DNA from: an uncultured Acidobacteriota bacterium
GTDB lineage: Bacteria > Acidobacteriota > Thermoanaerobaculia > Gp7-AA8
Length of the DNA: 64,000 nt
Direction of reading: 5' to 3'
Assembly: GCA_963822445.1 (NCBI GenBank)
Contig: CAWGHO010000003.1
Coordinates: forward strand, 1,376,001-1,440,000
Shown here in pieces: positions 15,467-54,938 of this stretch. The notes beneath the pieces are model-generated. The model made no database searches. It was not told the origin of the DNA and saw only the letters and a list, made by a program, of their open reading frames with translations. Position 1 is the first letter of the stretch; the number at the start of each line of letters is the position of its first letter. Position numbers and translations under genes: made by a program.

Positions 15467-15501
15467 TCTGGACTGCGGCGGCTGTGCCACCGCAGTCCAG
15501 A
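15467..15501. repeat. Single REP-like hairpin
   Basis: tctggactgcggcggctgtgccaccgcagtccaga. Confidence 0.75.
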
Positions 15502-39911: not shown

Positions 39912-39979
39912 GTGTGGTGCAGGCCTCCGGCCTGCCTCTGTCCACCGCCCAGAGGCAGGCCGGAGGCCTACACCACACC
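39911..39979. repeat. REP-like long palindrome (same family as 23733)
   Basis: ggtgtggtgcaggcctccggcctgcctctg ... cagaggcaggccggaggcctacaccacacc. Confidence 0.8.
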
Positions 39980-40006
39980 GGCACGACACCTATAATCCGC
40001 GCCCGC

Positions 40007-41062
40007 ATGGCAAAGAAGATTGCAGTAGTCCCCGGCGACGGAATCGGTCCTGAAGTGATCGACGCCGGATTGAAAGTGCTCAGCCGGGTCAGTGAAGCCC
40101 GCGGTCTCGGTCTCCAGTTCGTCCATTTCGGCTGGAATGCCGACGAGTACCTCCGCACGGGCATCTCCATGCCCGACGGCGCGATGGACGACATCCGCGT
40201 GAACTACGACGCCGTCTACCTCGGCGCATTCGGCGACCCCCGCGTCCCCGACATGAAGCACGCCGCGGACATCCTCCTCGGCATGCGCTTCCAGCTCGAT
40301 CTCTACGTCAACTACCGGCCGGTCAAGCTCCTCGACGAGCGCCTCTCGCCGCTGAAAAATAAAGGGGTGGCCGACATCGACTTCGTGATCTTCCGCGAGA
40401 ACACGGAAGGCGCGTACGTGGGCATGGGCGGCAATTTCAAGAAGGGGACGATGGACGAGATCGCGGTGCAGGAAGACGTCTCCACGCGCCGCGGCGTGGA
40501 GCGGATCATCCGCTACGCGTTCGAGTACGCGAAGAAGACCGGCCGCAAGTCGGTGTGCATGTCGGACAAGAACAACGTCATGCGCTTCGGCGGCGATCTC
40601 TGGCTGCGCACGTTCGAGGAAGTGGCGAAGGAGTACCCGGACATGGAGCACTTCCACATGTTCGTCGACGCGCTGACCATGCAGATGGTGCGCGCGCCGG
40701 AGATGTTCGAGGTGATCGTGACCAACAACATGTTCGGCGACATCGTCACCGACCTCGGCGCCGCACTGCAGGGCGGCCTCGGCGTCGCCGCATCAGGCAA
40801 CATCCACCCCGGCCGCGTCTCACTCTTCGAGCCCATTCACGGCAGCGCGCCGAAATACGCCGGGAAAGACGTCGCCAACCCCGCCGGCGCGATTCTCACC
40901 GCCGGGATGATGCTCGAGTACCTCGGACATGCGGACGAGGCTCGGATCATCGAAGACGCCGTGACCGAGGCCATTCGTGCGGAGGAAACGACGAAGGACC
41001 TGGGTGGGAGCCTGGGGACTCGCGCTGCCGGAGATGCGATTCTGAACCGACTGCAGGTTTAG
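40007..41062 (+). CDS. Isocitrate/isopropylmalate/tartrate dehydrogenase family protein (LeuB-like)
   Basis: 'PGDGIGPEV', 'RENTEG', 'NMFGDIVTD', 'EPIHGSAP'; TATAAT at 39991-39996. Confidence 0.92.
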   Translation: MAKKIAVVPGDGIGPEVIDAGLKVLSRVSEARGLGLQFVHFGWNADEYLRTGISMPDGAMDDIRVNYDAVYLGAFGDPRVPDMKHAADILLGMRFQLDLYVNYRPVKLLDERLSPLKNKGVADIDFVIFRENTEGAYVGMGGNFKKGTMDEIAVQEDVSTRRGVERIIRYAFEYAKKTGRKSVCMSDKNNVMRFGGDLWLRTFEEVAKEYPDMEHFHMFVDALTMQMVRAPEMFEVIVTNNMFGDIVTDLGAALQGGLGVAASGNIHPGRVSLFEPIHGSAPKYAGKDVANPAGAILTAGMMLEYLGHADEARIIEDAVTEAIRAEETTKDLGGSLGTRAAGDAILNRLQV

Positions 41063-41090
41063 GAGAGCGGCGGCAGAGCCGCCGCACTCC
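41061..41090. repeat. 30-bp palindromic unit, left boundary of CHAT island
   Basis: aggagagcggcggcagagccgccgcactcc; 28/30 identical to 50678-50707. Confidence 0.8.
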
Positions 41091-41202
41091 ACGTCGTTTC
41101 TCGACGCTTGATGAAGCTGCTCGCTCGGGATGCATCACAACGAACCAGCGCAACCCGTGTCTATGTCCCTCGAGGTGGTGATCGCCACCCTTGGGAGGTG
41201 CC

Positions 41203-42102
41203 ATGAACAATCGGATCGCCGTCGCAGTGCTGTCGTCTCTCTTCGCGCTTTCGCTCCACGCGCAACCCCAGCCGCAGACGCTCATTCAACCGACCCCTCA
41301 GGCGAGACAGCAGCTCACGAAAACGTTGCAGGAGTATCGGGCGGCCAAGGACCGTCATGGTGAAGCGGTCACGCTCCTGAAGCTGGGGTTCACCGAGGCG
41401 GGACTCGGGAATGTCAATGGGGCGCGAAGCAACCTCGCAGAAGCTGTCGAGAAAATGCGCGCGCAGAGCGACCTCGTGGGGGCATGGATGGCGCTCCTCG
41501 TCCTCTCTCAAATCGAAGTCGCAGCGGGACGGCCGGCGGAAGCGCTTCCCCACGCCGAACGAGCATTGAGCACGCTGAACGAGGCGAAGGCTTCGACCGC
41601 ACCGTTCTCGCTCAAGACCTTGATGGCCCTTGGCGCAGTCTCCGGACTTCCACCGGAGATGGGCCAATTGCTCGAAGGCCCGAATGTGGGCGCGATCAAG
41701 TCGCTGATGATTCAGTACTCGTTGGAGCCGATGACGCACGACTTCTACGGCAGTGTGCTGACGGAAGTTGGACAGCTCGAGAAGGCCGAGGCGGAGCTGA
41801 AAGCGGCGGCAGCCGGCGCGATCTACGCGCAGGGCATGTACGACTTCTCGATCGAGTCGCATTTCGGCGATCTCCGATTCCGGCAACAGCGCTACGACGA
41901 AGCGCGGACACACTACGTGAAGGCGTTGAACGCCTCGTCGACGGCAGCGACGATGCTTCCCATGGGCGGCGGTCAGCAGATCCAGGCGGGCCTCTACGAT
42001 CGCCTGGTGCGCCTCGAGACGGTCACGGGTCATCCCGAGGAAGCGAAACGCTGGTCGCAGAAGGCGCGGGAGCTTGGCAGAAAACGGCCGGAAACCCGCT
42101 AA
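41203..42102 (+). CDS. Secreted TPR-like protein, stand-alone paralog of the N-terminal module of the downstream CHAT protein
   Basis: SD ggaggt, signal peptide; colinear motifs with 42109 (DRxGEA, GAW, GRP, YG..L..VG.LE.AE, GDLR.RQ.R.DEAR.HY). Confidence 0.85.
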   Translation: MNNRIAVAVLSSLFALSLHAQPQPQTLIQPTPQARQQLTKTLQEYRAAKDRHGEAVTLLKLGFTEAGLGNVNGARSNLAEAVEKMRAQSDLVGAWMALLVLSQIEVAAGRPAEALPHAERALSTLNEAKASTAPFSLKTLMALGAVSGLPPEMGQLLEGPNVGAIKSLMIQYSLEPMTHDFYGSVLTEVGQLEKAEAELKAAAAGAIYAQGMYDFSIESHFGDLRFRQQRYDEARTHYVKALNASSTAATMLPMGGGQQIQAGLYDRLVRLETVTGHPEEAKRWSQKARELGRKRPETR

Positions 42103-42108
42103 AGACGG

Positions 42109-45100
42109 ATGTGTCTCTCGCGATTTGCGTCTGCGATGGCGGCTTGCCTCGCCCTCCTCGTGTCCCTCCCCGCGATCGCCGATGATTCGCTCGCCGGCAT
42201 CGGTGAGTTGATCATGACGGATCGTGCGGCGGAAGCGCGCGCGCGACTCATCAGCGCGCGTGATTCCTTCGTTACACAGGGTGACCGATCGGGCGAAGCA
42301 TCCACCGAGCTCCTCCTCGGCCTCGCCGAAACGGCGCTGGGTGATTCGACCGCGGCGCGTTCGCATCTCGACCGAGCCGCGTCGATGTTCCTCGCGATCG
42401 AGGAGCATTTCGGCGCGTGGCTCTCGATGACGACACTGGCCCAGTTCGAGACACAGAGCGGCCGCCCGCGCGACGCGATCGCGTTGCACGAGCGATCGCT
42501 CCAACTGCTCGACGCTGCGGCCGATCCGCAATCGCGACTCTCGGTCACAACGATCGAGGTCCTCGGCATCGTATTCGGCGCATCGCCGGAACAGATTCAA
42601 ATGCTCACCGCGGCTCCGGAGCTGACGAGAACGCTGAGGATTTCGCTCGCCGAGTTCACGAGCCGGATTGCTTACGGGCAGACTCTATTGGCGGTGGGAG
42701 AGCTGGAGAACGCGGAAGACCAGCTCACGCAGGCCACGACGATGGGGGCGATGTTCGGCAACCTGCTCGATGGAATGCTGGCGACACCGATGGGCGATCT
42801 CCGGAAGCGGCAGTGGCGATTCGACGAGGCGCGGCAGCATTACGAGACCGCGCTCACGACGGGTGTGATGCCGGGACGGGTGATTTTCGTTCGGCCTGCA
42901 TCAGTCCAGATCGATTTGCTCGGGAAGCTCGCAGAGATCGACGTGCTTACGGGGCACGTCGACGAAGCCCTCGCGCGGAACGACCTGGAACGAACGCTCG
43001 CCCGCGATTCCGAGCCGGCGCGTGAGCCGTGGATTTGGATCGAGCGCGGTTCTCTGCTCCAGAAGGCCGGCCGTGTCCGCGACGCGGAGAAAGCGTATGG
43101 CGAAGCGCTGGTGGCTGCCGAAAAGCGTCGCGAACGTCATCCCGTTGGTGCGGTTCACAGCGAGCTCGGGTTGCTCTACTTCTACGCCGGAAACTACGGA
43201 AAGGCTGCGGCCGACTTCGCGAAGGCGATCGAAATCTTTCAAGAGCTGAAGGAGGGCAAAGCAGAGTCCGTGCTGTGGACGCTGCTGGCGGACGTACACA
43301 TGGCGATCGACTCTCACGTCAGCGCCGCCGAGGCGATCGCGCGGGCGAAGGAGTTCGCGAAGACCAGTAACTTTTCCATGGCCGGCACGATCGCCGATTT
43401 CCTCGACGCGACGCTGAAATGGAGACAGGGTGAGCACGCCGACGTGCGCGGTGCCTTCGCAGCATTGTTGGCGGTCCGGGAAGACTACGGGCTGGTGATC
43501 AGCGACGAGGCGAAGCGGTTCATGACGGAGGTCGTCTCGATGAACATCGCAATGACGCCGCCCGACCCCGCGCGCATCTCCGGAGACGGTGTGGAACTAC
43601 TCCCATCGATGGCGCTGATGATGAGCGGTGTTCCTCTCGCGGCGCGTGGCGACTACGCGGAAGCCCGTGAAATCTGGAGCAAGGCGAAGGAGCTTCTCCA
43701 AAGCCGCGACGCGCAGGCGATCTTCGAGCAATTGATCGCTGGTACGTACTGGCGCGAAGGCAAGATCGAGGATGCGATTCGCCATTTCAAGAGCTCCACG
43801 GAAATCCTCGAGAGCGTCGCGACGGACGTTCCTGTCGAAGAGATGCTGATGAGTTACCTCGGTGCAAGGCACTCGCTGTACGAACACTTTGTGGAGGTGC
43901 TCTTGCGCGAGGGGCGCACGGTCGAGGCTTTCGAGGAGAGCGAGCGTGCGCGGGCCCGCGCGTTTCTCCAGATGATCGGAAACCGGCGTGTCGGCGCTCG
44001 CCGCGCCGATCCGCACCTGGTTCAACAAGCGGACATTCAGCGACGGCGCATCAGCGCGATGGATCAGTCCATCCGAACCGCTGCCTCCTACGAGGAAAAG
44101 GCGCTTCTGAAACGCGAGCGCGTCGCGGCTCGCCGCGAATACGAGGCGTTGATGGTCCGCGTGAAGATCTCGAATCCGGAATACGCGGCGCTCACGAGCG
44201 TCGAGACCGTGCCTGTCGATGTCATCCAGAACGAGCTGCCCGACGGTACGACGATGATCGACTATTTCGTTACAGGCACCGGCGTGCATGCATGGGTCAT
44301 CGACCGCGGATCGGTCGATTACGTACGGCTTCCGATCGATGCGACCGCGTTGCGCCGCATCACCTGTTGGGCAAGACAATTCAGCCCGCCCGACGACGAT
44401 GTCAACTCTCGCGGCGTGATTGTGCGGGCCGGCACTTGCAGCGACCGCGCAACCGCTGATGAAGCGTACGCGATGCTCATAGCGCCACTGCGCGCGATGA
44501 TCCGCCATCAGCGTCTCGTGATCGTGCCCCACCGCGAGCTGCACTACGTTCCTTTCGCCGCGCTGCACGACGCGGAACGCAATTGCTATCTGATCGAGGA
44601 TGCCACGATCGTCTATGCGCCGAGTGCGACCGCGTGGCGATTCCTCCGGCGTGACGAGCCGCCGGTCTCAGGTCGGGCGCTGGTCCTTGGCGATCCCGCC
44701 GGGTCGATGGGCGCCCTGGAGTTTGCCAGGCGCGAGGCGGAGATGGTGGCCAGCCGGCTCGGCACGAAGGCGCTGCTCGGTACCGACGCGTGCGAACGTC
44801 TCATTCGCGACCTCGATCCGACGGTCGATCTGCTGCACATCGCCGCGCATGCCCTGTACAACGGCGCCAATCCGCTCTTCAGTTTCATCGCGCTCGCCGC
44901 GGATGGGGAGGAGTACGACGGCAATCTCGAAGCGCAGGAGATTCTTGCGGATGTCGATCTGACAGGCGTGAATCTCGTCGTGGTCTCGGCGTGCAGCACA
45001 GCCGCCGGAAAACCGAGCGCCGGGGATGAAATCGTCGGCCTGACGCGAGCACTTCTTTACGCGGGCACGCCTGCTGTGCTCTCGACGCTCTGGGAGATCG

Positions 45101-45291
45101 ACGACATGGCGTCGGCGGCGCTGATGGATGCGTTCTACGAACGGTTGGTGTCGGGTGTTCCCGTCGCGGACGCACTGCGCGAGGCGCAACTGTCCATGCT
45201 GCATACGGAAGTATTCGCGTCGCCGAGGCTCTGGGCCGCGTTCTCGCTACATGGAGATCCCCAGGGAACGTGGCGGCAGGGGGCGCCGTGA
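42109..45291 (+). CDS. Exported TPR-CHAT domain (caspase-like) protease
   Basis: Signal peptide, TPRs, 'SERARAR', 'VPHRELHYVPFAAL', catalytic 'LLHIAAHA' and 'VVVSACST', 'STLWEIDD', 'WAAF'. Confidence 0.92.
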   Translation: MCLSRFASAMAACLALLVSLPAIADDSLAGIGELIMTDRAAEARARLISARDSFVTQGDRSGEASTELLLGLAETALGDSTAARSHLDRAASMFLAIEEHFGAWLSMTTLAQFETQSGRPRDAIALHERSLQLLDAAADPQSRLSVTTIEVLGIVFGASPEQIQMLTAAPELTRTLRISLAEFTSRIAYGQTLLAVGELENAEDQLTQATTMGAMFGNLLDGMLATPMGDLRKRQWRFDEARQHYETALTTGVMPGRVIFVRPASVQIDLLGKLAEIDVLTGHVDEALARNDLERTLARDSEPAREPWIWIERGSLLQKAGRVRDAEKAYGEALVAAEKRRERHPVGAVHSELGLLYFYAGNYGKAAADFAKAIEIFQELKEGKAESVLWTLLADVHMAIDSHVSAAEAIARAKEFAKTSNFSMAGTIADFLDATLKWRQGEHADVRGAFAALLAVREDYGLVISDEAKRFMTEVVSMNIAMTPPDPARISGDGVELLPSMALMMSGVPLAARGDYAEAREIWSKAKELLQSRDAQAIFEQLIAGTYWREGKIEDAIRHFKSSTEILESVATDVPVEEMLMSYLGARHSLYEHFVEVLLREGRTVEAFEESERARARAFLQMIGNRRVGARRADPHLVQQADIQRRRISAMDQSIRTAASYEEKALLKRERVAARREYEALMVRVKISNPEYAALTSVETVPVDVIQNELPDGTTMIDYFVTGTGVHAWVIDRGSVDYVRLPIDATALRRITCWARQFSPPDDDVNSRGVIVRAGTCSDRATADEAYAMLIAPLRAMIRHQRLVIVPHRELHYVPFAALHDAERNCYLIEDATIVYAPSATAWRFLRRDEPPVSGRALVLGDPAGSMGALEFARREAEMVASRLGTKALLGTDACERLIRDLDPTVDLLHIAAHALYNGANPLFSFIALAADGEEYDGNLEAQEILADVDLTGVNLVVVSACSTAAGKPSAGDEIVGLTRALLYAGTPAVLSTLWEIDDMASAALMDAFYERLVSGVPVADALREAQLSMLHTEVFASPRLWAAFSLHGDPQGTWRQGAP

Positions 45292-45680
45292 GACGGCGCC
45301 TCATTGAGGACAACAGCAGAGACAAGAAAGCCGTCGAAATGGCGGCTACTACTCGCTCGTGGACGAGCCGATCGCGGCCGAGGTCTCTTGGGCGGTGCGC
45401 TCGCATCCCAGCCCGACGTGTGGGTGCTCGAGTTCACCCGCGGCGCGATGCCGAGGAACCTCGCCGGTGACTTCGACTCGGACGTCGGACCGGGCATCGG
45501 CGGCCCATACCCGCCGTGGCCGCGCCGTCGACGCGATTTTGCCGTCCCAGATGATGGGCGGAGTAGTGATGTGGCTTCATGGACGGCATCGTGGCAGAGA
45601 CGGGACGGATGCTTCGATGGGAACGAATGGTTGCAACTAAATCGGCGCGGCGGTGTCTTTCCCGTATGGGAGGCGACTTC

Positions 45681-45818
45681 ATGCTGGTCTGTGTTCGTTG
45701 CGGGAAGAAGATCACCGAGGCGGCGTACTGGTGTCCTTCATGCCGGTGGCATCTCTCCTGGTATTGCTCGAATGGGGGACGGTGTCACAAGTGCGGGAGT
45801 TCCTTGCAGAAGGTCTGA
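45681..45818 (+). CDS. 45-aa zinc-finger (RING-like/double ribbon) mini-protein
   Basis: SD gggagg; MLVCVRCGKKITEAAYWCPSCRWHLSWYCSNGGRCHKCGSSLQKV. Confidence 0.7.
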   Translation: MLVCVRCGKKITEAAYWCPSCRWHLSWYCSNGGRCHKCGSSLQKV

Positions 45819-45832
45819 GAAAGGGAAATGCG

Positions 45833-46273
45833 ATGGGTCTGTTCGACAAGCTTCGTGGTTCCAGCACAGTCACGTTCAATCCGCAGCAAGCTCTCATGAC
45901 GATCGTCGTCGCGGCGGTCAAAGCCGATGGTCATGTTTCCGACGATGAGATTCGTCGGATCCGCTCCCTTTGTGCTTTGAATCCTCTCTTCTCGACCAAC
46001 TCGACGGAGCAGGACAACGTGGTCCTGCGCTTCGCCGACAACACCACACATCAACTCGGGGAGCAGGCGGTCGCGCTGGCCGCGGCGGCACTTCCGCCGG
46101 CATTGCGGGAGACGGCGTTCGCGTATGCCTGCGACATGGTGCTCGCCGACGGCATCGTCACCACCGACGAGGAACACACGATCATCGATCTCGCGAAGAC
46201 GCTCGGGGTCTCCGAGGAACTGGCGCATGCGATTGTCACAACGACGCTCGTGCGCAATCGCGGAAACGAATAG
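45833..46273 (+). CDS. TerB-family (tellurite resistance-like) protein
   Basis: 'AAVKADGHVSDDE', 'LRETAFAYACDMVLADGIV..E', 'LAKTLGVS'. Confidence 0.85.
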   Translation: MGLFDKLRGSSTVTFNPQQALMTIVVAAVKADGHVSDDEIRRIRSLCALNPLFSTNSTEQDNVVLRFADNTTHQLGEQAVALAAAALPPALRETAFAYACDMVLADGIVTTDEEHTIIDLAKTLGVSEELAHAIVTTTLVRNRGNE

Positions 46274-46289
46274 ATAGGAGAGAAATCCG

Positions 46290-46430
46290 ATGGCCAGCCG
46301 AACTTGCGACAATTGTGGCAAATCGAAAGACACCGCCGGCGGGAAGTCCTGTGAGAAGGGGCATTTCGTGTGTCACTCGTGCACGAGCCGGCACATTCAC
46401 TGTCCGCTCTGCCGACACACGTTGCGCTAG
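46290..46430 (+). CDS. 46-aa stand-alone C3HC4 RING-finger-like protein (not in ORF track)
   Basis: SD aggag; hand translation MASRTCDNCGKSKDTAGGKSCEKGHFVCHSCTSRHIHCPLCRHTLR*. Confidence 0.75.
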   Translation: MASRTCDNCGKSKDTAGGKSCEKGHFVCHSCTSRHIHCPLCRHTLR

Positions 46431-46828
46431 CGAATGGCCGCTTCCTGTCTGTGTCGAACGATCGCCGTAACCTCGTCGACAGCAACAAGCGTGACAGGAG
46501 GGCGTTCTAACGGGCCAGAGCGATGTTGGAAGGCCTTGATACACAGGCATCCCGGGCGTGAAGGGCGGAGCGGCAGCTTTTGGCCCTACGAGCCGTGTCG
46601 GAACGTTCCGTGGCGAAGGCACGCTGACGGTTGACGCTAGCTGGCAACAAGGTGGTACAGGCGGGACCGGTGGACCCGGCGGTGGCGGGAGTGACGGCTG
46701 CGACGGGCACATCAGCTCTGCACCGCGGTGTATTCTTTCCGTCCAGCTTCAGCAGTTTCAGCACGGTCCAGAAGTCGAACGTATTGCGGAATCACCGATC
46801 CATGTCCCTCTGATCATGGGGAGCACGG

Positions 46829-49800
46829 ATGTCAGGAGAGGCATTGCTGCCACGAGCGCATCGACGATTGCTTTTGGGGTCAGTGCCGCTGATTGCGATC
46901 GCGATCGCCGGTATTTTCGCCGTACGGTTACGGACCGACTCCACCGAAGCGTTCTCGATTACGCGTTTCCTGCCCCCGTCGTTGTTGCGCACCCGTCCAG
47001 TCGAGGCCCGCGTCAGCGGACTACCCTGGGCGCCCTTTGTTCGTAAGGTGCCCGCAGCAGTTCAAAACACCGCCGTCGCCACTCGCGGGGAGTCGTTCGA
47101 TACGGAAGGACAGCGCCAAGGTCTGATCGAGCTGCTCACCGGCGACCCGCGTGACGCGGTCGCAATGCTCGAGACCGCGTCGGCCGCGAACCAGCCGGCC
47201 GTCTGGAGCGATCTCGCCGCCGCGTACTACGAGGCCGCGGTTCGGCATGACGCGCCGGAGCTTCTCGCGAGCGCGCTTGCCGCCGTCGATCGCGCCCTCG
47301 CGTTGGAACCCGATCGCGCCGAAGCGCTCTTCAATCGAGCGCTGATTCTCGATCGCCTCGGCCTTCGCATCGATGGACGCGCCGCGTGGTCCCGCTATCT
47401 GGCGACCGATCCCGAAAGCGGGTGGAGCGACGAGGCGCGGAAGCATCTCGCGGCGCTTCCGCCCGAGCGGCCGTTTCTCGAGGTCCTCGATGCCGAGTAT
47501 GACCGCGTCCTCCGCGATCCCTCTGCCGCGGAAGCGCTGTACGCACGTGATCCATTTGGCGCTCGCGGACAAGGCGTCGTCGAAGTCCTGGGACGCTGGG
47601 GCCATGCGATGGTGCGCGGTGACGAGCGCGAGGCCGCGCGGCATCTCAGCGTGGCCAGAAGACTTGGAGATGTAGTCGCTCGCGGCGGCGATCGGACGCT
47701 GCAAAAGGCCGTCGCCGCCATCGATCGCGCGCCCGACCGTCGCGCCCTTGCCGCTGCACATGCCGACTTTCACAAGGGCATGAAGACGATTCACGACTCG
47801 CTCGAACAGGCTGAGGTTTTGCTCCTGCGGGCGTCGGCCGCGTTCCGCGAGGCGGGGAGTCCGATGACCTTTCCCGCAGCGCACTTCGCCGCGGCGTGTG
47901 CGTACATGGCCGGACGCCGCGACGAAGCGGCCCAGCGGCTTGAAGCGCTGCTGGCCGCAACACCGTCCGACTTTCCGGCCTATCGCGGCTTCATGTTGTG
48001 GCAGCTCGCCAATTACCGGGACACGCGCGGCGAATGGGGTGCGGCGATCGAGCTCTTCGAACAGAGCGCTGCGCTTTTCGAGCGCATCGGCGAGCGTGGC
48101 AATGTCGCGACCATCCGCCAGATCCTCGCCGCGATCTACGACAAGACCGGTGATCCGGAGACTGCCTGGAAGAACCGCATTGCCGCCCTCGGCGGCCCGG
48201 GCATGCGCGCTGGGAAGATCGATGAGCTGAAGGTCTGGTTCATCGTTGAAGCAGCGATCCTTCGCCGCGAATGGCACGTGGCCGTGTCGTTCCTCTCGGT
48301 GTATGTCGAGCTCGCACGTCGGGCCGATAGCGACGTCGTGCTCGCCAACGCATTGCTGATGCGCGCCGTCGTCCACGATCGTCTCGACGACCGGCGACGG
48401 GCCAGCGAAGACGTCGAAGAAGGAAGGCTCATCGCGTCGCGCCTCGCGGACGCGACGTATCGCGACAAGTTGCACGCAGCAGAATGGCGCTCCCTGGGGA
48501 TGCTGCGCTCCACGCCTCCCGCAACGGCGGATGCGATGCTCACCCGAGCGATTGAGTACGAGTCGACGGTCGGCCAGGCGAGTGCAGTTCCGGGACTGCT
48601 GTTGCTGCGCGCGCGGGCGCGCCGTCTCCAGGAGAACATTTCCGCCGCGCTGGAAGATGTCGAGCGCGGCATCCAGCAGTTGGAGCGCTACCGCGAGTCT
48701 CTGCCGGAAGGCGCCGCCAGATGGGGGGCATTCCACGCCGCCGAGGAATTGTTCGAAGAGGCAGTCGATCTGGCGATGGTTGCCGGCGACGGAGAAGCAG
48801 CCTTCCGTTTTTCGGAGAAAGCCCGCGCGCGGTCGCTACTCGACTCGTACGGCGCCACGTCGCATGCGGACATCCGTGCGATTCCGGCGGGAACGGTCAT
48901 CGTCGAGTACGTGACGCTTCCCGCCAGCGTCGTCATCTTCGTGGCCGACAGGAACGGCGTTCACGCCGTGCGAGCGCCTTCGTCGCGTGATGCGCTGGCT
49001 TCTGAGATTCGCGCATTCACTGCTGCCCTTCGGAAGGATCAATCTTCCGAAGCGTCGCGCCGGGCAGCCTTGCTGTATGGCTATCTCCTGGCACCGGTCA
49101 CATCGCGAATCACTGGTGCCGCGACCGTGGTCTTCGTGCCGGACGCCACGCTCTCCACGGTTCCATTCGGCGCTCTCGTGAATGGCGAGGGCGAATATCT
49201 CTTGGAGCGCCACGCCGTCGTCGTTGCACCGAGTGCTGCCACCTTCAACGTCGCGAACGAACGCCGCCGTCAACGGTCCGCTCCGCGTTCGGTACTCGTG
49301 GTCGCTGCGTCCGCACCGACGGCTGATGGGGCAAGCCTCAGGTTCGTCGCCAGGGAAGCGAAAAGGATTGCGGAGAAGTATCGAAGCGCGTTCAGCCTCG
49401 GCGAAGCCTCCTCTCAGTACGACGAGCTGGCGAAATGGGCATCTGCCGCCGACGTCATTCACTTCGGCGGCCATGCCGTCGGTGATCCCCGTGGGTACGA
49501 GCCTGCGTCGATTGTGTTGCGCAACCAGGGCGTCGAGCGGCGCGTCGGCGTCGCGGAGATCGCGAAGTTGCGTCTCGATCGCGCGGCGGTCGTCGTGCTC
49601 GCGGGCTGCAGCACGGCGCGCGGCGAGCATCGCGCTGCCGAAGGCGTGATGAGCGTCGCGCACGGATTCCTTGCGGCGGGGGCGCCATCCGCTGTGGCGA
49701 CGTTGTGGCCGATTTCTGACGAAGCAGCGGCGCGATTTTTCCCGCGCCTGCACGAAAAGCTGGCCGCCGGACTGTCGCCGGCCGAAGCGCTGCGTGAGAC

Positions 49801-49873
49801 GCAACGCGATGCGATCCGCGACGGCAACATACCGCTGTCGCTCTGGGCGGCGGTTCAACTGATTGGGAGTTGA
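46829..49873 (+). CDS. Membrane-anchored TPR-CHAT domain (caspase-like) protease
   Basis: N-terminal TM, 'EARVSG', 'WSDLAAAY', 'EALFNRAL', 'SEKARAR', catalytic 'VIHFGGHA' and 'VVLAGCST', 'ATLWPISD'. Confidence 0.92.
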   Translation: MSGEALLPRAHRRLLLGSVPLIAIAIAGIFAVRLRTDSTEAFSITRFLPPSLLRTRPVEARVSGLPWAPFVRKVPAAVQNTAVATRGESFDTEGQRQGLIELLTGDPRDAVAMLETASAANQPAVWSDLAAAYYEAAVRHDAPELLASALAAVDRALALEPDRAEALFNRALILDRLGLRIDGRAAWSRYLATDPESGWSDEARKHLAALPPERPFLEVLDAEYDRVLRDPSAAEALYARDPFGARGQGVVEVLGRWGHAMVRGDEREAARHLSVARRLGDVVARGGDRTLQKAVAAIDRAPDRRALAAAHADFHKGMKTIHDSLEQAEVLLLRASAAFREAGSPMTFPAAHFAAACAYMAGRRDEAAQRLEALLAATPSDFPAYRGFMLWQLANYRDTRGEWGAAIELFEQSAALFERIGERGNVATIRQILAAIYDKTGDPETAWKNRIAALGGPGMRAGKIDELKVWFIVEAAILRREWHVAVSFLSVYVELARRADSDVVLANALLMRAVVHDRLDDRRRASEDVEEGRLIASRLADATYRDKLHAAEWRSLGMLRSTPPATADAMLTRAIEYESTVGQASAVPGLLLLRARARRLQENISAALEDVERGIQQLERYRESLPEGAARWGAFHAAEELFEEAVDLAMVAGDGEAAFRFSEKARARSLLDSYGATSHADIRAIPAGTVIVEYVTLPASVVIFVADRNGVHAVRAPSSRDALASEIRAFTAALRKDQSSEASRRAALLYGYLLAPVTSRITGAATVVFVPDATLSTVPFGALVNGEGEYLLERHAVVVAPSAATFNVANERRRQRSAPRSVLVVAASAPTADGASLRFVAREAKRIAEKYRSAFSLGEASSQYDELAKWASAADVIHFGGHAVGDPRGYEPASIVLRNQGVERRVGVAEIAKLRLDRAAVVVLAGCSTARGEHRAAEGVMSVAHGFLAAGAPSAVATLWPISDEAAARFFPRLHEKLAAGLSPAEALRETQRDAIRDGNIPLSLWAAVQLIGS

Positions 49874-49887
49874 AAGGAGGTAGGCAA

Positions 49888-50658
49888 GTGAAGGTCTACA
49901 TGACGGGACTCATCTACCTGAACGGCTGTAACGGAGATGTGCGCGCGTACGCGACGCAGGCGGAGGGGCATCACGCGAGCCTGTGGGTCGAGCCGGATGA
50001 TTTGAACGAAAGCCAGACGTCGTGGTGGGAGGGTCTGAGGCGCGACCCGCGTAGCGTTGGCAAAGACCAGATGGTCATCGAGTTCGAGATCCCCGGTCCG
50101 GCCGACATCAAGTTCCCTGGCTCAGGCGAGGTCACGTGCTCCGGTCTCGAGGATGGACTTCCAAAGCTGAAGAAGCAGAAAGCGAAGCAAAAGGCCGACG
50201 ATCCGGACGAACCGGTGCAGGCATTTCAGGTCACTCCCGGAGCGGCACTGACGAATGCGGAGGTGGCCGTCGAGGGAGGGTCGATCACGCCGCGTCGTTT
50301 CAAGGAGGTCACGCTCGTCGAATGGACGATCACTGACCCGGGTCTCGCGATCGTCGTCACATCACGCGACGACCCCGCCGATTCACGGACGATCACGCTG
50401 AATAATGCTGACGCCGAGGTGCTCTTCCTGAACATGCATGAGCTGCCCGAGAAGCATGGCGAGCAAGACACGCGTGCTGGCGATCATGTGCATCACCACC
50501 AGAATCTCAATCCTGACCCGAGCGTGACCGTCTTCGCCGTCGACGCGAAAGCGCCCGGTCGCGTGGGCCAACTCGCAAGCGTCCGTTCAGCAGCTCTCAA
50601 CTTCATCAGAGACGGCGGGTGCTCGTGCGGATCGTCGACTTGCTGTTGCGATAATTAG
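49888..50658 (+). CDS. Hypothetical CHAT-associated protein with His patch and Cys-rich tail
   Basis: GTG after aaggagg; 'HVHHHQN', C-terminus GGCSCGSSTCCCDN. Confidence 0.75.
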   Translation: MKVYMTGLIYLNGCNGDVRAYATQAEGHHASLWVEPDDLNESQTSWWEGLRRDPRSVGKDQMVIEFEIPGPADIKFPGSGEVTCSGLEDGLPKLKKQKAKQKADDPDEPVQAFQVTPGAALTNAEVAVEGGSITPRRFKEVTLVEWTITDPGLAIVVTSRDDPADSRTITLNNADAEVLFLNMHELPEKHGEQDTRAGDHVHHHQNLNPDPSVTVFAVDAKAPGRVGQLASVRSAALNFIRDGGCSCGSSTCCCDN

Positions 50659-50677
50659 CCGCCACGACTGAAAGTCC

Positions 50678-50707
50678 AGGAGTGCGGCGGCAGAGACGCC
50701 GCACTCC
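50678..50707. repeat. 30-bp palindromic unit, right boundary of CHAT island
   Basis: aggagtgcggcggcagagacgccgcactcc. Confidence 0.8.
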
Positions 50708-50709
50708 TG

Positions 50710-51909
50710 TCACCCCGCCCGCAACGCATCCACCGGATCCATCCGCGCCGCGTGTCGCGCGGGAATCACTCCCGCCACCAGCCCCACCGTAACGGCGATG
50801 CTCTCCGCAAGCAGCGCGAACCACCACGGCGTGCTCACCGGGAGCGCGGGAAACACGAGCGTGAGCAGTTGCGCGATCAGCACGCCGAGCGCGAATCCGG
50901 CGGCACCTCCGACGGCCGCCAGTAGCGCGGCTTCGCCGAGAAACATCAGCACGATCTGCTGTTGCGTGGTTCCGATTGCTCGAAGCAGGCCGATCTCCGC
51001 GGTGCGTTCGCTGACGGCGATGGTCATGATCGTGAGGATGCCGACGCCGCCGACGAGCAGGGAGATGCTCCCAAGCGCGCCGACGGCGAAGGTGAGGACG
51101 CCGAGGACCGAGCCGAGGACGTCGATCATCTGCTCCTGGGTGATGATCGTGATGTCGTCGCGGCCGTGACGCGCGGCAATCACGCGGCGGATTCCGGAGG
51201 TCACCTCGTCGACATCCGCCTCGGGGTCATATGACGCGTGAAAGCCCGTGCATCCCTCGCGGTTGAACAACTCCATCGCGCGCGCGGTCGGGATCATCAC
51301 CATGTCGTCGAGATCCATCCCCACGAACTGCCCCTGCGTCTCCATCACCCCGACGATGTGAAAGCGCATGCCGCCGACGTCGAGTTGCTTGCCGAGCGGA
51401 TTGGCCGTGCCGAACAGCTCTTCCTTCGACTTCGAGCCGAGCACCGCCAGGGGTCGCGGAGCGTGCGGATCGTCATTCGGAAGAAACGATCCCGTCTTGA
51501 TCCGCATGCCGGTGATGGTCATCCACGCCGGGGTCATGCCGTAGACGTTGACGCGACGGCGGCGGCCATTTGCGGAGATCTCGGCGTTGCCGTCGGTCGT
51601 CGGATTCGTGGTGATGACGTGGCGCACGCGGCGCACGGCGATGGCGTCGTCGATGGTCAGCGGACGAACCGTGCCGAAGACGCCGATGGACACTCCGGCC
51701 GTGGCCACTTTCCCCGGCGTGACGATGATCAGGTTCGTGCCGAAGTGGCTGAACTCGGACAGCACGAAGTCGTGCAGCCCCTGGCCGATCGACGTCAGCA
51801 GGATGACCGAGGCGATGCCGACGGCGATGCCGAGCGCGGCGAGGATCGTGCGCATTCGATGTGCGCGCAGCGCGCCGAAGGTCAGCCGGATGAAGTCACT
51901 CGGCGCCAC
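50710..51909 (-). CDS. MacB-family ABC permease
   Basis: 'GIAVGIASVI', 'SISLLVGGVGILTIM..ERTAEIGLLRAIG', 'PARHAARMDPVDALR'. Confidence 0.93.
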   Translation of the reverse strand: MAPSDFIRLTFGALRAHRMRTILAALGIAVGIASVILLTSIGQGLHDFVLSEFSHFGTNLIIVTPGKVATAGVSIGVFGTVRPLTIDDAIAVRRVRHVITTNPTTDGNAEISANGRRRRVNVYGMTPAWMTITGMRIKTGSFLPNDDPHAPRPLAVLGSKSKEELFGTANPLGKQLDVGGMRFHIVGVMETQGQFVGMDLDDMVMIPTARAMELFNREGCTGFHASYDPEADVDEVTSGIRRVIAARHGRDDITIITQEQMIDVLGSVLGVLTFAVGALGSISLLVGGVGILTIMTIAVSERTAEIGLLRAIGTTQQQIVLMFLGEAALLAAVGGAAGFALGVLIAQLLTLVFPALPVSTPWWFALLAESIAVTVGLVAGVIPARHAARMDPVDALRAG

Positions 51910-51910
51910 G

Positions 51911-53119
51911 TCATCTCCTGTTCAGCGCGAGCGCGGGGTCGAGTGCGGCCGCCCGCCGTGCCGGAAGGACGCTGAAGGCGACGCCGCTGAGGATGGCGAT
52001 GGTGAACGCCGCGATCACCGCCCAGCCCGGCGCGAATGCGGGGATGGCTGGATAGATCCGGCGGATGAGCAGACTGCCGAGCTGGCCGAGGATCGATCCG
52101 GCGATGCCGCCCACGCCGGCGAGCACGATCGCCTCGGAAACGAAGATTCGCCGGATTTGCGAAGGCGATGCACCGATGGCTTTGAGCAGGCCGATCTCAC
52201 CGGTGCGTTGCGAGACGGCGATCAGCATCACGTTCATGATCAGGATTCCGGCGACGGCCAGGCTGATCGAGGCGATGCCGCCGAGGGCCAGGGTCAGCGC
52301 GAGCAGGATCCGGTCGAACGTCTTCACCACCGCATCCTCGGTGATGATGGTGACGTCCTCCTCGCCGCCGTGCCGCGCGGCAATCGTGCGGCGGACTTCC
52401 TCCTTCACCCGGTTCACCTGCTCGCGCGTGTTGGTTTCGACGCCGAGGCGCAGCAGCGAGGTGAGATTGAAGGTGACCTGTGCCGCCGCGATGGGGATGA
52501 TCGTTACTTCGTCGACGTTGACCCCGAGCATCTCGCCGCGCGGCGCGAGGACGCCGATGACGCGGAAGCGGCGGTCGCCGACGCGCACCCATTGACCGAG
52601 GGCTGCGCGCGAGCCGAACAGCTCGCGGCGGACATTCGTGCCGATCACGCAGACCCAGGTGACTTTTCGAGGGTCCTGCAGCGGAAGAAAGCGGCCCTGG
52701 GCCATGGAGAGGTTCCAGAGCGAGAACAGCGCGTCGGTCGTGCCGATCACCGGCACATCGCGGCGGCGGCCGTTCGCGGTGACCTCGCCGGAAACGAGAT
52801 TGACCGGCGCGACGCGCTGGACGCCGCGGATGCGATAGAGGGCGAGGGCGTCGTCGAGGGTGAGATCGCGCGGCGTGCGGCCGGAGATCATCCCGCCGAC
52901 GCCACCGACCGTCTCGGCGCGGCCGGGGAGAATCATCATGATGTTCGAGCCGAGGGCCTCGAACTGATTGCGGACGTAGCGGCGCGCGCCTTCGCCGAGG
53001 GAGGTGAGGACGACAACCGCGGCGACGCCGATCGAGGTGGCGAGGATCATCAGCAGCGTGCGGAGGCGGTAACCCCAGAGCGCGCGCCAGGCGAAGGTGG
53101 TGAGGTCGCGGGAAGTCAT
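51911..53119 (-). CDS. MacB-family ABC permease
   Basis: 'SISLAVAGILIMNVM..QRTGEIGLLKAIGA', 'PARRAAALDP'. Confidence 0.93.
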   Translation of the reverse strand: MTSRDLTTFAWRALWGYRLRTLLMILATSIGVAAVVVLTSLGEGARRYVRNQFEALGSNIMMILPGRAETVGGVGGMISGRTPRDLTLDDALALYRIRGVQRVAPVNLVSGEVTANGRRRDVPVIGTTDALFSLWNLSMAQGRFLPLQDPRKVTWVCVIGTNVRRELFGSRAALGQWVRVGDRRFRVIGVLAPRGEMLGVNVDEVTIIPIAAAQVTFNLTSLLRLGVETNTREQVNRVKEEVRRTIAARHGGEEDVTIITEDAVVKTFDRILLALTLALGGIASISLAVAGILIMNVMLIAVSQRTGEIGLLKAIGASPSQIRRIFVSEAIVLAGVGGIAGSILGQLGSLLIRRIYPAIPAFAPGWAVIAAFTIAILSGVAFSVLPARRAAALDPALALNRR

Positions 53120-53784
53120 GCGTCGCTCTCCACCCTCCCATCGATCATCTGAATCTGCCTCTTCGCCCGCCCGCCCAGCAGCGGATCGTGCGTGACCATG
53201 ATCAGAGTCATGCCGCGCGTGTGCAGTTCTTCGAGCAGCGCCAGCACTTCCTTGCCGGTGTGCTGATCGAGATTGCCGGTCGGTTCGTCGGCGAGGATTG
53301 CCGCCGGTTTCATGACCATGGCCCGGGCGATGGCCACGCGCTGGCGCTCGCCGCCGGAGAGCTGGTCGGGACGATGGCGCGAGCGGTGGGCGATGCCGAA
53401 TTCCTCGAGCAAGCGCGCGACGCGCGGCGCACGCTCCGCTGGCGGAACGCCGGCGAGGACCAGCGGCAGCTCGACGTTTTCCGCGGCAGAGAGACGCGGG
53501 ACGAGGTGGAAGAACTGAAAGACGAAGCCGATCTTCTCGCGCCTCACGCGCGACTGCTCCTCGTCGCTGAGCGCGGTCACGTCTTCGTCGTCGAGCCGGT
53601 ACACGCCCTCCGTCGGACGATCGAGCAGACCGATGATGTTGAGCATCGTCGACTTGCCCGAGCCGGACGGGCCCATGATCGAGACGTATTCGCCGGCGCC
53701 GATCTCCAGGCTCACGTCGCGCAGGGCGTGCACGTCTTCATCGCCGACGTGAAACATCCGGCGGACGCGATCGAGATGGATCAT
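53116..53784 (-). CDS. ABC transporter ATP-binding protein (MacB/LolD-like)
   Basis: Start MIHLDRV at ATGA overlap; 'GPSGSGKST', '[14 protein letters not shown]', '[10 protein letters not shown]'. Confidence 0.95.
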
Positions 53785-54938
53785 TTCTTCGGTGCTGCTT
53801 CGGCAATCGCTCGCGCGCCGGCGACCACGCCTTCGCGCTCGACCGACAGCACGACCTTGTCGCCCGGCTCCAGGCCCGAGCGCACTTCGGTGTACTCCCA
53901 GTTCGAAAGGCCGGTCTCGATCTGCCGCTCGACGAGCTTCGCGTCGTCGGCTGTGTAGACGAGCACGCGATTGCCTTCCATCACCGCCTGCGTCGGCACG
54001 CGCACCACGTTCGCGCGTGTCTCGAGAATGATCTCGACATCCGCGCTGTAGCCGACGAGCAGTGCTTTCGCGTCTTCGGGATTGGTGAGCTCGATCTCGA
54101 CGTCGACGGTGCGGGCCTGCTTTTCGAGATCGAGCACGAACGGCGCGACGCGGCGAACGCGGCCCGGAAACTTGCGATCGGGAATGGCCTCGATGGTGAT
54201 GTTGCCGGGCTGCCCGACGCGCACGCGAGCGACGTCGACCTCGTCGATCGGCGCGGTGACGTAGAGACAGGTGTCGTCGATCAGATCGACGGCGGGCGGG
54301 GTAGGGATGCCGGGCGGGGAAGGGGTGGTGAACTCGCCCATCTCGCCGGTGATCTTGGCGACGACGCCCGCGAACGGCGCGCGCAGGACGGTGCGGGTAA
54401 GACTTGCCCGAACGACATCCACCCGCGCGCGGCTCTGCAGCAATTCGGCGCGTGTGGCATCGCACGCCGCGCGAAGCGTTTTCGCAGATGAGACCGCGCG
54501 ATCGAACTGCTCTTCGGGAACGAGACCGTCCGCGTGCAATTTTCGCGAGCGCGCAGCCTCCCGCTCGGCAACGTCGGCGCGCGAGCACGACTCTTCGGTC
54601 CGCAAAGCCGCGCTGCGAACCTGTTCATCGGCGACGCGAGCCTGGGCGACCGTATCGTCGTTCCACAACTCGAGCAGCACCTGCCCCGCGCGCACGCGAT
54701 CGCCTTCCTTGACCGGCAATCCGACGATCTGCCCGCCCGATGGCGGCGCGAGCTTCGCGCGCCGGCAGGCGTTGACCGTTCCCGCGCGGGTATTGGCGAC
54801 GGAACGCTCGACAGATCCGCGGTCGACGGTGGCAATGGCGACGCTCACCGCGTCCGATTGCATGGAGCGCCAGATCAAAAACGACCCGACCGCAGCGATG
54901 ACCGCGACGATCACAATCCGGCGGACCAGACGACTCAC
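53781..54938 (-). CDS. Efflux periplasmic adaptor (MacA/HlyD family)
   Basis: N-terminal TM, 'VKEGDRVRAGQVL', coiled coil, 'LRAPFAGVV', 'IDEVD'. Confidence 0.92.
   Translation of the reverse strand: MSRLVRRIVIVAVIAAVGSFLIWRSMQSDAVSVAIATVDRGSVERSVANTRAGTVNACRRAKLAPPSGGQIVGLPVKEGDRVRAGQVLLELWNDDTVAQARVADEQVRSAALRTEESCSRADVAEREAARSRKLHADGLVPEEQFDRAVSSAKTLRAACDATRAELLQSRARVDVVRASLTRTVLRAPFAGVVAKITGEMGEFTTPSPPGIPTPPAVDLIDDTCLYVTAPIDEVDVARVRVGQPGNITIEAIPDRKFPGRVRRVAPFVLDLEKQARTVDVEIELTNPEDAKALLVGYSADVEIILETRANVVRVPTQAVMEGNRVLVYTADDAKLVERQIETGLSNWEYTEVRSGLEPGDKVVLSVEREGVVAGARAIAEAAPKK

Follow-up and report, generated by a model that had tools for sequence, protein, structure and literature searches.

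Proteases with a CHAT domain take part in several described bacterial systems. In Craspase, the type III-E Cas7-11 complex, the tetratricopeptide repeat (TPR)-CHAT protease Csx29 cleaves Csx30. In Myxococcus xanthus, DdvA is, according to the parts of the DdvA report drawn on here, a transmembrane anti-sigma factor with a cytoplasmic zinc-binding anti-sigma (ZAS) domain and a periplasmic TPR-CHAT region, and its CHAT domain has been proposed to cut its own linker, starting regulated intramembrane proteolysis. The same parts report DdvA-like proteins from Myxococcota and one Comamonas only. Moreover, in the sections of the gasdermin preprint used here, 43 of 50 bacterial gasdermins have a protease as neighbour, in most cases a CHAT (n=23) or Peptidase C14 (n=15) enzyme, and subtilases lie next to fungal gasdermins (Johnson et al., bioRxiv 10.1101/2021.06.07.447441). 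Here we describe a 9.6-kb block of seven compact, co-oriented genes, two of them for TPR-CHAT proteins, within a 64,000-nt stretch of DNA (the window, G000:C3:1376001-1440000, where G, C and L numbers are our labels for genomes, contigs and loci) from a member of the Thermoanaerobaculia, Acidobacteriota. The block lies between a LeuB-like gene and a MacB/MacB/ABC operon on the − strand, and is probably a mosaic insert of three cassettes with separate histories, one of which holds a DdvA-type protease without its sigma factor and a protein linked to proteases, hereafter the partner.

The order and coordinates of the seven + strand genes, as listed in a first-pass annotation of this DNA, were confirmed. 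Two gaps, at 45292-45680 (390 nt) and 46431-46828 (398 nt), divide the genes into three units. The first comprises TPR303 (41191-42102), a stand-alone TPR protein (TPR_12 E 4.6e-13), and CHAT1 (42109-45291), a TPR-CHAT protease of 1060 aa (CHAT E 8.3e-66; TPR_12 E 4.6e-25), both with a signal-peptide-like N-terminus. The second is a triple of small genes, namely ZnR45 (45681-45818), TerB (45833-46273) and ZnF46 (46290-46430). The third is formed by CHAT2 (46829-49873) and the partner (49900-50658). At the nucleotide level, the nearest relatives differ from unit to unit, with identities of 91% for the TerB triple (G030:C143), 86% for TPR303 (G030:C143), 79-80% for CHAT1 (G030:C193 and G003) and 69% for CHAT2 (G010), while the LeuB-like gene shows 82-87% across the genus. 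In addition, the units are found apart from one another, as loci with orthologues of CHAT1 and TPR303 (G003 and G030:C193) carry no TerB, finger, CHAT2 or partner gene nearby, and neither TerB nor CHAT1 was seen near CHAT2 and partner relatives in the 14 loci examined. The block would be accessory DNA, set into a variable spot behind the LeuB-like gene and made up of three cassettes with separate histories.

The block had been taken for an island because it is bracketed by direct repeats, and this pair is real: the copies at 41048-41090, which overlaps the stop codon of the LeuB-like gene, and at 50665-50707, both on the + strand, extend over 43 nt with 86% identity. However, they are not island-specific, because their 24-nt hairpin core belongs to a genome-wide family of repetitive extragenic palindromes (REP). 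When up to 2 mismatches are allowed, the 6.0-Mb genome holds 70 copies, 35 per strand, against none for a reversed-pattern control. At up to 3 mismatches, 113 core matches were found, mostly in inverted pairs about 63 nt apart. The REP copies fall into 44 loci, 26 of them multi-copy, and neighbouring loci less than 10 kb apart were seen five times against 2.9 expected at random, the pair around the block being one of the five. Like REP/BIME or REPIN elements, the family consists of GC-rich hairpins of about 30 nt in intergenic DNA, dispersed as many imperfect palindromes that are often paired in inverted orientation. The two flanking copies are single hairpins of the 'GGAGT-footed' form, and an 'AGGAG(T/A)' foot to the left of the core is common to other copies. 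They are ordinary members of the family that mark no boundary, and the 'repeat-bounded island' is a REP coincidence. The block has neither att-type repeats of its own nor a recombinase, as a site-specific island would, and Pfam detected no recombinase, integrase or transposase domain among the seven proteins.

Two further observations concern these repeats. The 10 nt to the left of the foot (41038-41057 and 50655-50674) match at 8 of 10 positions between the two flanking copies and are not shared by other members of the family, which could be chance or the trace of a duplication. A third, more diverged copy of the core, with 3 mismatches, lies elsewhere in the window on the − strand (15470-15493).

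The LeuB-like gene (39914-41062, + strand), a member of the isopropylmalate/tartrate dehydrogenase family (Iso_dh E 1e-99; NF002898 407 bits against a cut-off of 393), is the anchor of the variable spot and has an orthologue of 82-88% amino acid identity in 35 of 35 genomes of the genus, a set that includes the unpublished G002 and G025. In G008 this gene converges on MacB_a, MacB_b and the ABC gene, the same neighbours that in the window occupy 50710-54588 on the − strand as two MacB-type permeases and an ABC ATPase, with an HlyD-type gene next at 53781-54938. Only a spacer of about 50 nt separates them in G008, with no REP copy inside. The 9.6-kb block is an insert and G008 represents the empty site, although the single repeat that the first-pass annotation expected there is missing. 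The third-position G+C content (GC3) of the island genes, 0.72-0.77, is below that of the flanks, 0.86-0.88. The downstream flank of the LeuB-like gene, up to 20 kb long, was taken from 20 congeners, of which 19 were informative and one was too short, and none of the seven island proteins was found in these flanks. In nine of the 19 loci the LeuB-like gene is followed straight by a TonB-dependent receptor, and in another nine by one to six other predicted genes before it (hydrolases, a WD40 protein, a PBP, oxidoreductases and, in G008, the MacAB operon); the remaining locus has no TonB receptor within 19 kb. Given this varied content, the 3' flank of the LeuB-like gene is a general variable region of the genus and not a defence island. 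In two congeners, at L065 (G028:C190) and L066 (G029:C3), the upstream side of the LeuB-like gene carries, at a distance of about 8 kb, an operon of a CHAT2-type gene, a partner gene and an S8 peptidase gene, and CHAT2-type cassettes therefore occupy the same chromosomal neighbourhood there in another arrangement.

These results bear on the proposal that the seven genes form one integrated conflict or signalling system that is triggered by proteolysis and moves as a whole, bounded by the two repeats. The compact arrangement in one orientation, a GC3 uniformly below that of the flanks and the empty site in G008 would all agree with it, as does the genome G030, where the TerB triple again adjoins TPR303 and a CHAT gene. 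However, the repeats are two of 70 REP copies, pairs of which commonly lie within 10 kb of each other; the empty site holds no repeat; the seven genes include no integrase or transposase; the block is split by its two long gaps; and the cassettes have different nearest relatives and occur separately in different genomes. This distribution has already largely refuted the single system, which we consider very unlikely. The data match instead what the first-pass annotation offered as its fallback, an accretion of two or three independent cassettes at a REP site.

Within the mosaic, CHAT2 resembles DdvA. The protein has a short N-terminal tail, a hydrophobic segment at about residues 14-32, TPR and a CHAT domain (E 8.5e-53). 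When it was compared by phmmer with all PDB sequences, the sole match was 8rot_B (E 2.1e-7), from the M. xanthus DdvA-DdvS complex (8ROT), and covered the juxtamembrane residues 56-210 and the CHAT residues 900-994. CHAT2 shares with DdvA a length of about 1000 aa, a single transmembrane (TM) segment, a juxtamembrane linker, TPR and a C-terminal CHAT domain with a His-Cys dyad. All 15 aligned members of the clade, CHAT2 among them, keep this dyad (H878/H882 and C927), which had been noticed earlier, as well as more than 100 invariant positions. Unlike DdvA, CHAT2 has no ZAS head, as only about 13 residues precede the hydrophobic segment and Pfam gave no zf-HC2 match in the protein, and no sigma factor gene is present in the island, the 398 nt upstream of CHAT2 holding no gene at all. 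A further difference is the conserved partner gene downstream, none being mentioned for ddvA in the parts of the report cited here. In Table S7 of that report, the terms Acidobacteri and Thermoanaerobaculia returned no entries.

A juxtamembrane motif, R-x2-E-x-R-x5-W-x-P (R56, E59, R61, W67 and P69; window 46994-47035), is also invariant in the 15 aligned proteins. It aligns with the linker region of DdvA, which the cited parts of the DdvA report propose as the self-cleavage site, and by analogy the motif may be a site of cleavage.

Relatives of CHAT2 indicate how the ZAS-less form may have arisen. The nearest is that of G010, with 66% amino acid and 69% nucleotide identity and a partner gene (41% aa) after it. 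The more distant relatives within the genus, L070-L077 (38-43% aa), start with an H-x3-C-x2-C motif followed by a TM segment, and zf-HC2 was matched in all five longer relatives scanned, above the cut-off of 22.2 bits in L070 (27.3) and L071 (31.3) and at 19-21 bits in L072, L073 and L076. Each longer relative is preceded by a gene for about 300 aa, with overlapping stop and start codons, and five of six such upstream genes gave matches to sigma70 region 2 or region 4, all below cut-off. The layout of sigma-like gene, ZAS-TM-TPR-CHAT gene and partner gene also occurs in G098, which belongs to another genus. In the fuller form, the clade would encode a sigma-like factor, a protein with a ZAS (zf-HC2) head, one TM segment and periplasmic TPR-CHAT, and a partner, which resembles the Myxococcus DdvA/DdvS pair plus one extra gene. 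By comparison, CHAT2 and its five closest relatives (L063, L065, L066, L068 and L069) have a short basic tail before the TM segment, and no sigma-like gene was found beside them. Both the ZAS head and the sigma gene have been lost in this group, which keeps the TM segment, the TPR-CHAT region with its intact dyad and the partner. CHAT2 would thus be a periplasmic protease or sensor that is tethered to the membrane and has no sigma factor left to control; for the whole block, export and topology, any cleavage and any role in defence or signalling are inferred.

The same losses could be read as decay, in which case CHAT2 and the partner would be the decaying remains of a sigma/anti-sigma module and would serve no function today. 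The missing ZAS head and sigma gene fit such a reading, as do the 398-nt upstream gap, which has no homology to anything compared, and the decay of other cassette remnants in relatives (TerB in G029 and G098). Nevertheless, both reading frames are intact, the dyad and the more than 100 invariant positions are kept in all 15 clade members, the partner retains every near-invariant residue of its family, and the layout is shared by five other ZAS-less relatives, which makes it a stable sub-type and not a one-off truncation. A relic is thus highly improbable.

The surroundings of the fuller operons deserve mention in their own right. In three of them (L070:4824-6260, L071:13289-14725 and L077:12975-14411), the gene immediately before the sigma-like gene encodes a CHAT-only protein of 478 aa that lacks TPR, so that these operons hold two CHAT proteases. 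Just upstream of three other sigma-like/ZAS-CHAT/partner operons, in G016, G026 and G018, lie genes for Tubulin_2 (PF13809) proteins of 1340-1447 aa (L072:12915-17258, L073:2263-6456 and L074:8058-12080), with a divergent trypsin-like (Nal1_C) gene, a 73-aa gene and a MotA/ExbB-like gene on the other side, and these surroundings may belong to a larger conserved neighbourhood.

The partner is a beta-rich protein of 252 aa that carries no signal peptide and belongs to an undescribed family, being unnamed, without a Pfam model and with a confident structural model that has no match in PDB. A TTG start at 49870 is possible for its reading frame, but nine homologues have their start close to the ATG at 49900, at most a few residues away. 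Neither Pfam, NCBIfam, PADLOC nor PHROG assigned it to a family, and 14 further members gave no match to Pfam. A word-based search returned 10 proteins, the partner itself included, among 5.8 billion, and a profile search of 1.84 billion representatives returned 321 clusters at E up to 1e-3, of which 230 reached 1e-10, so that the family amounts to about 320 clusters at 50% identity. Cluster look-ups for 20 members gave only 'hypothetical protein', with taxon labels for two (Thermoanaerobaculia and Candidatus Synoicihabitans). Across 104 aligned members, G3, P19, G21, H24, W43, G127, N178, H196 and L203 are near-invariant, as is a Cys-Cys pair two to three residues from the C-terminus. The AlphaFold model built on this alignment (pLDDT 91.5, pTM 0.90) is mostly beta, and its N-terminus is a confidently modelled strand.

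Structural comparison of this model placed the family beside nothing described. Foldseek against PDB gave a best E of 0.054 with a TM-score of 0.11, VIA-align reached a Z of at least 2 with 0 of 48,161 PDB chains and, in a second look, with 0 of 997, BFVD viral structures gave nothing, and ESM Atlas offered no usable match. An earlier and poorer model (pLDDT 67.5) had reached a best VIA Z of 2.4 and nothing in Foldseek. As judged from a predicted model, the missing PDB match is unusual and is no proof of a new fold. The best match of the 104-member profile among PDB sequences, to designed Ig proteins at E 0.026, was taken as noise. Two features of the sequence were considered and set aside. 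An 'L-x-G-C' stretch at residues 7-10 does not make the partner a lipoprotein, as its Cys is not conserved across the family and a charged n-region is lacking, and a K-rich loop (KLKKKKK) is not a conserved cleavage site, as this insertion is limited to the closest 10 sequences. One partner-like gene, G016:C89:16977-17693, contains a single in-frame TGA, which could reflect a pseudogene, a sequencing error or recoding.

The partner family is linked to proteases. It occurs in 22 of the 35 genus genomes, with 33 copies outside G000 in 21 genomes, and 26 of the 33 follow a same-strand CHAT2-type gene at a distance of less than 250 nt. Another copy is the second of a tandem, two are cut by contig ends, and four have no CHAT2-type neighbour, the CHAT2-clade profile finding nothing on their DNA. 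Among these four, two are followed by a Peptidase_C14 gene (E 5.5e-19 and 7.2e-19), one is preceded by an S8 subtilase, and one is the C-terminal part (residues 399-629) of a 635-aa reading frame (L040:655-2559, G014:C463). The roughly 400 residues before the partner domain in this last case have no Pfam match, and the frame may be a fusion or over-extended. In addition, at three of the closest CHAT2-type loci the partner gene is followed by an S8 gene, whose product is membrane-anchored. These counts cover the genus; outside it, a scan of genome contigs yielded one locus and a scan of metagenomes one contig of 1252 nt. It had been suggested that TPR-CHAT proteases here act on their neighbours, and for CHAT2 and the partner the conserved linkage makes such a relation plausible, although the same does not extend to the other pairs of the block. 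Bacterial gasdermins have neighbours of a similar kind, and we therefore favour a role in which the activity of the partner would be gated by, or coupled to, a dedicated protease. The partner may then be a substrate or pro-effector or, less likely, an inhibitor.

Several points weigh against the reading of the insert, and of its protease-partner pair, given above. The partner has no signal peptide and begins with a well-modelled strand, whereas the catalytic domain of CHAT2 would, from its homology to DdvA, be periplasmic, so that direct cleavage would need an export route as yet undescribed. The C14 neighbours likewise lack signal peptides and look cytoplasmic, in agreement with a partner in the cytoplasm, and the CHAT2 case becomes more difficult to account for. 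Two of the 26 adjacent pairs come from the unpublished genome G002, and gene calls in the relatives were made with a crude GC3 filter of our own. The signal peptides of TPR303 and CHAT1 and the TM segment of CHAT2 were judged by eye from the N-termini; the earlier description of both CHAT proteins as carrying an N-terminal signal or TM segment agrees with their envelope-directed look and, for the CHAT2 clade, is backed by the DdvA homology, yet depends on these readings by eye. Finally, the TerB triple of G030 is followed directly by a TPR303 orthologue and a CHAT gene, so that the intact triple touches TPR/CHAT genes in both that genome and G000, and there may be some room for a functional link between the cassettes.

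The question of location leads to another account of the partner, as a cytoplasmic output or accessory protein, for example one that binds metal through H24, H196 and the C-terminal Cys-Cys, which would not be a protease substrate. Its gene would in the ancestral operon simply have been expressed together with the others under the sigma factor that the CHAT-bearing anti-sigma protein controls, and in the window it would persist as a leftover neighbour. The near-invariant His, His and Cys-Cys residues suggest such a metal site, the absence of a signal peptide would separate the partner from a periplasmic CHAT2, and since the fuller relatives are sigma/anti-sigma operons, their downstream gene would be autoregulated. 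Against this, the partner has been kept beside a TM-TPR-CHAT gene after the loss of ZAS and sigma factor (L063, L065, L066, L069 and the window), and where the CHAT2-type gene is missing the neighbour is again a protease, of another family (C14 twice and S8 once). Recurrence with three protease families resembles protease-gated effectors such as bacterial gasdermins, and the cytoplasmic output is, on balance, an unlikely though not a negligible account; the protease-linked role is retained as the favoured one.

How far the gasdermin comparison can be taken is a separate matter. Common to both is a beta-rich protein of about 250 aa encoded beside a caspase-fold protease, and the partner family stands beside CHAT, C14 and S8 enzymes. 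However, no gasdermin match was found for the partner in Pfam, NCBIfam or PADLOC, its model at pLDDT 91.5 has no structural match in PDB, it lacks the conserved Cys at position 3-4 and has the C-terminal Cys-Cys as its hallmark instead, and its main protease is predicted to be periplasmic and not cytoplasmic. It may tentatively be supposed that the family is a new class of protease-gated effector, doing the job of gasdermins with a different fold and held inactive until processing by a CHAT, C14 or subtilisin-type enzyme, and we regard this as a doubtful possibility.

The TPR303 and CHAT1 cassette has a narrow distribution. Orthologues of CHAT1 at 75% amino acid identity were found only in G030:C193 and G003:C1, the next best match being at 45%, and those of TPR303 show 70% in G003 and G030:C193, beside the CHAT1 orthologue, and 81% in G030:C143, whose 80 nt upstream are also 84% identical. 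In the loci examined, a stand-alone TPR303 is limited to G000, G003 and G030. TPR303 is 33% identical to residues 42-305 of CHAT1, its N-terminal TPR part, and, as a paralogue of the N-terminal third of CHAT1-type proteins, would be a duplicated CHAT1-type TPR module; our guess is that it is a recent duplicate which may compete with or assist that module. Both proteins are apparently Sec-exported. The G000 genome has 11 matches to the CHAT model, most of those inspected starting with a hydrophobic N-terminal segment, and exported TPR-CHAT proteins therefore appear, from these sequences, to be an expanded family in it. A TPR-CHAT protease with a dedicated neighbouring gene is also found in Craspase. 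The match of CHAT1 to Csx29 in NCBIfam is weak (33 bits against a cut-off of 300), so CHAT1 is not a member; unlike in Craspase, CRISPR genes are absent here and the proteins look exported or membrane-anchored. Neither CBASS nor CRISPR genes were found near CHAT2.

The second cassette would consist of three small cytoplasmic metal-binding proteins that move as a unit of 860 nt. ZnR45 is a double zinc-ribbon-like protein of 45 aa (DZR 26.4 bits, just under the cut-off of 27.3), and TerB is a stand-alone TerB-domain protein of 146 aa (PF05099 43.5 bits against a gathering cut-off of 24.4) with a weak DjlA match in NCBIfam. ZnF46 is a 46-aa Cys/His finger whose spacing, read from the sequence as C-x2-C-x11-C-x3-H-x2-C-x2-C-x6-C-x2-C, fits the RING C3HC4 cross-brace pattern. 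The earlier label 'RING' thus agrees with this spacing, whereas its sole model match is Sina_RING at E 5e-4 and 20.6 bits, below the cut-off of 29.3. Eight synonymous codon differences against one non-synonymous between the ZnF46 genes of G000 and G030 indicate, at the sequence level, that ZnF46 is a real gene under selection.

The triple is patchily distributed and often decaying. It is intact in one other of the 35 genus genomes, at G030:C143 (ZnR45 93%, TerB 90% and ZnF46 98% aa; 91% nt over window 45577-46432), where all Cys residues of ZnR45 are kept and the 81% TPR303 orthologue, a CHAT gene (35% to CHAT1) and fragments 89% identical to CHAT1 lie downstream. In G029 the triple is frameshifted, with no CHAT match within 10 kb. 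In G098, from another genus, it is scrambled, leaving a TerB/ZnF46 remnant (L093, G098:C114:26433-29660) that has about 90% nucleotide identity and an inverted internal segment of about 147 nt; such high identity between genera may hint at recent transfer of this small cassette. The pairing of TerB with a RING-like finger recurs in G017 as a distant pair, a ZnF46 homologue of 56% and a TerB homologue of 27%, with another small Cys-rich reading frame, and no CHAT match was found on that 13-kb contig. At this level of similarity TerB is rare: the genus has it in 4 of 35 genomes, a sample of the class in 2 of 151 and a sample of the phylum in 5 of 401, and three of these last five matches are only about 30% identical and lack the fingers. 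With the TerB of ter operons and the N-terminal domain of DjlA, the protein shares the Pfam TerB domain above cut-off, and it differs in standing alone between two mini zinc-finger genes with the other ter genes absent. In the literature, no paper holding both terms TerB and CHAT was found, and nothing relevant on TerB with a RING or treble-clef finger. A metal- or stress-linked role is a guess from the name of the TerB family.

General searches added little to this picture. In the block, Pfam models above cut-off are TPR, CHAT (twice) and TerB, with the zinc ribbon just below; PADLOC gave only weak BovA, TPR and PDC-S48 matches on the window, and PHROGs only a TerB family and two families of function unknown. 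Rfam had no match between 40000 and 52000 at E up to 0.1, and a scan for promoters and terminators showed no excess over shuffled sequence. Both intergenic gaps lack homology to the island proteins or the rest of the genome, except for about 100 nt 5' of ZnR45, which is common to G030 and G029.

For the first-pass annotation, the main lesson is negative: the seven genes do not make up one system, and it is a coincidence that REP copies bracket them. The remaining interest lies in the sigma-less DdvA-type protease and its conserved, protease-linked partner. The DdvA-type architecture is common in a genus of Thermoanaerobaculia, with and without the sigma-binding head, and its loci there hold a conserved additional gene, whose undescribed family is paired in other places with cytoplasmic C14 caspases and subtilases. 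The partner is thus a concrete and testable candidate for the protein on which, or together with which, such proteases act, and the C14-paired members of its family offer a simpler, cytoplasmic test system. Should the doubtful reading of the family as a new class of protease-gated effector hold, the Thermoanaerobaculia operons of sigma factor, CHAT-bearing anti-sigma factor and partner would represent an envelope alarm of the DdvA type with a direct connection to an effector of its own.

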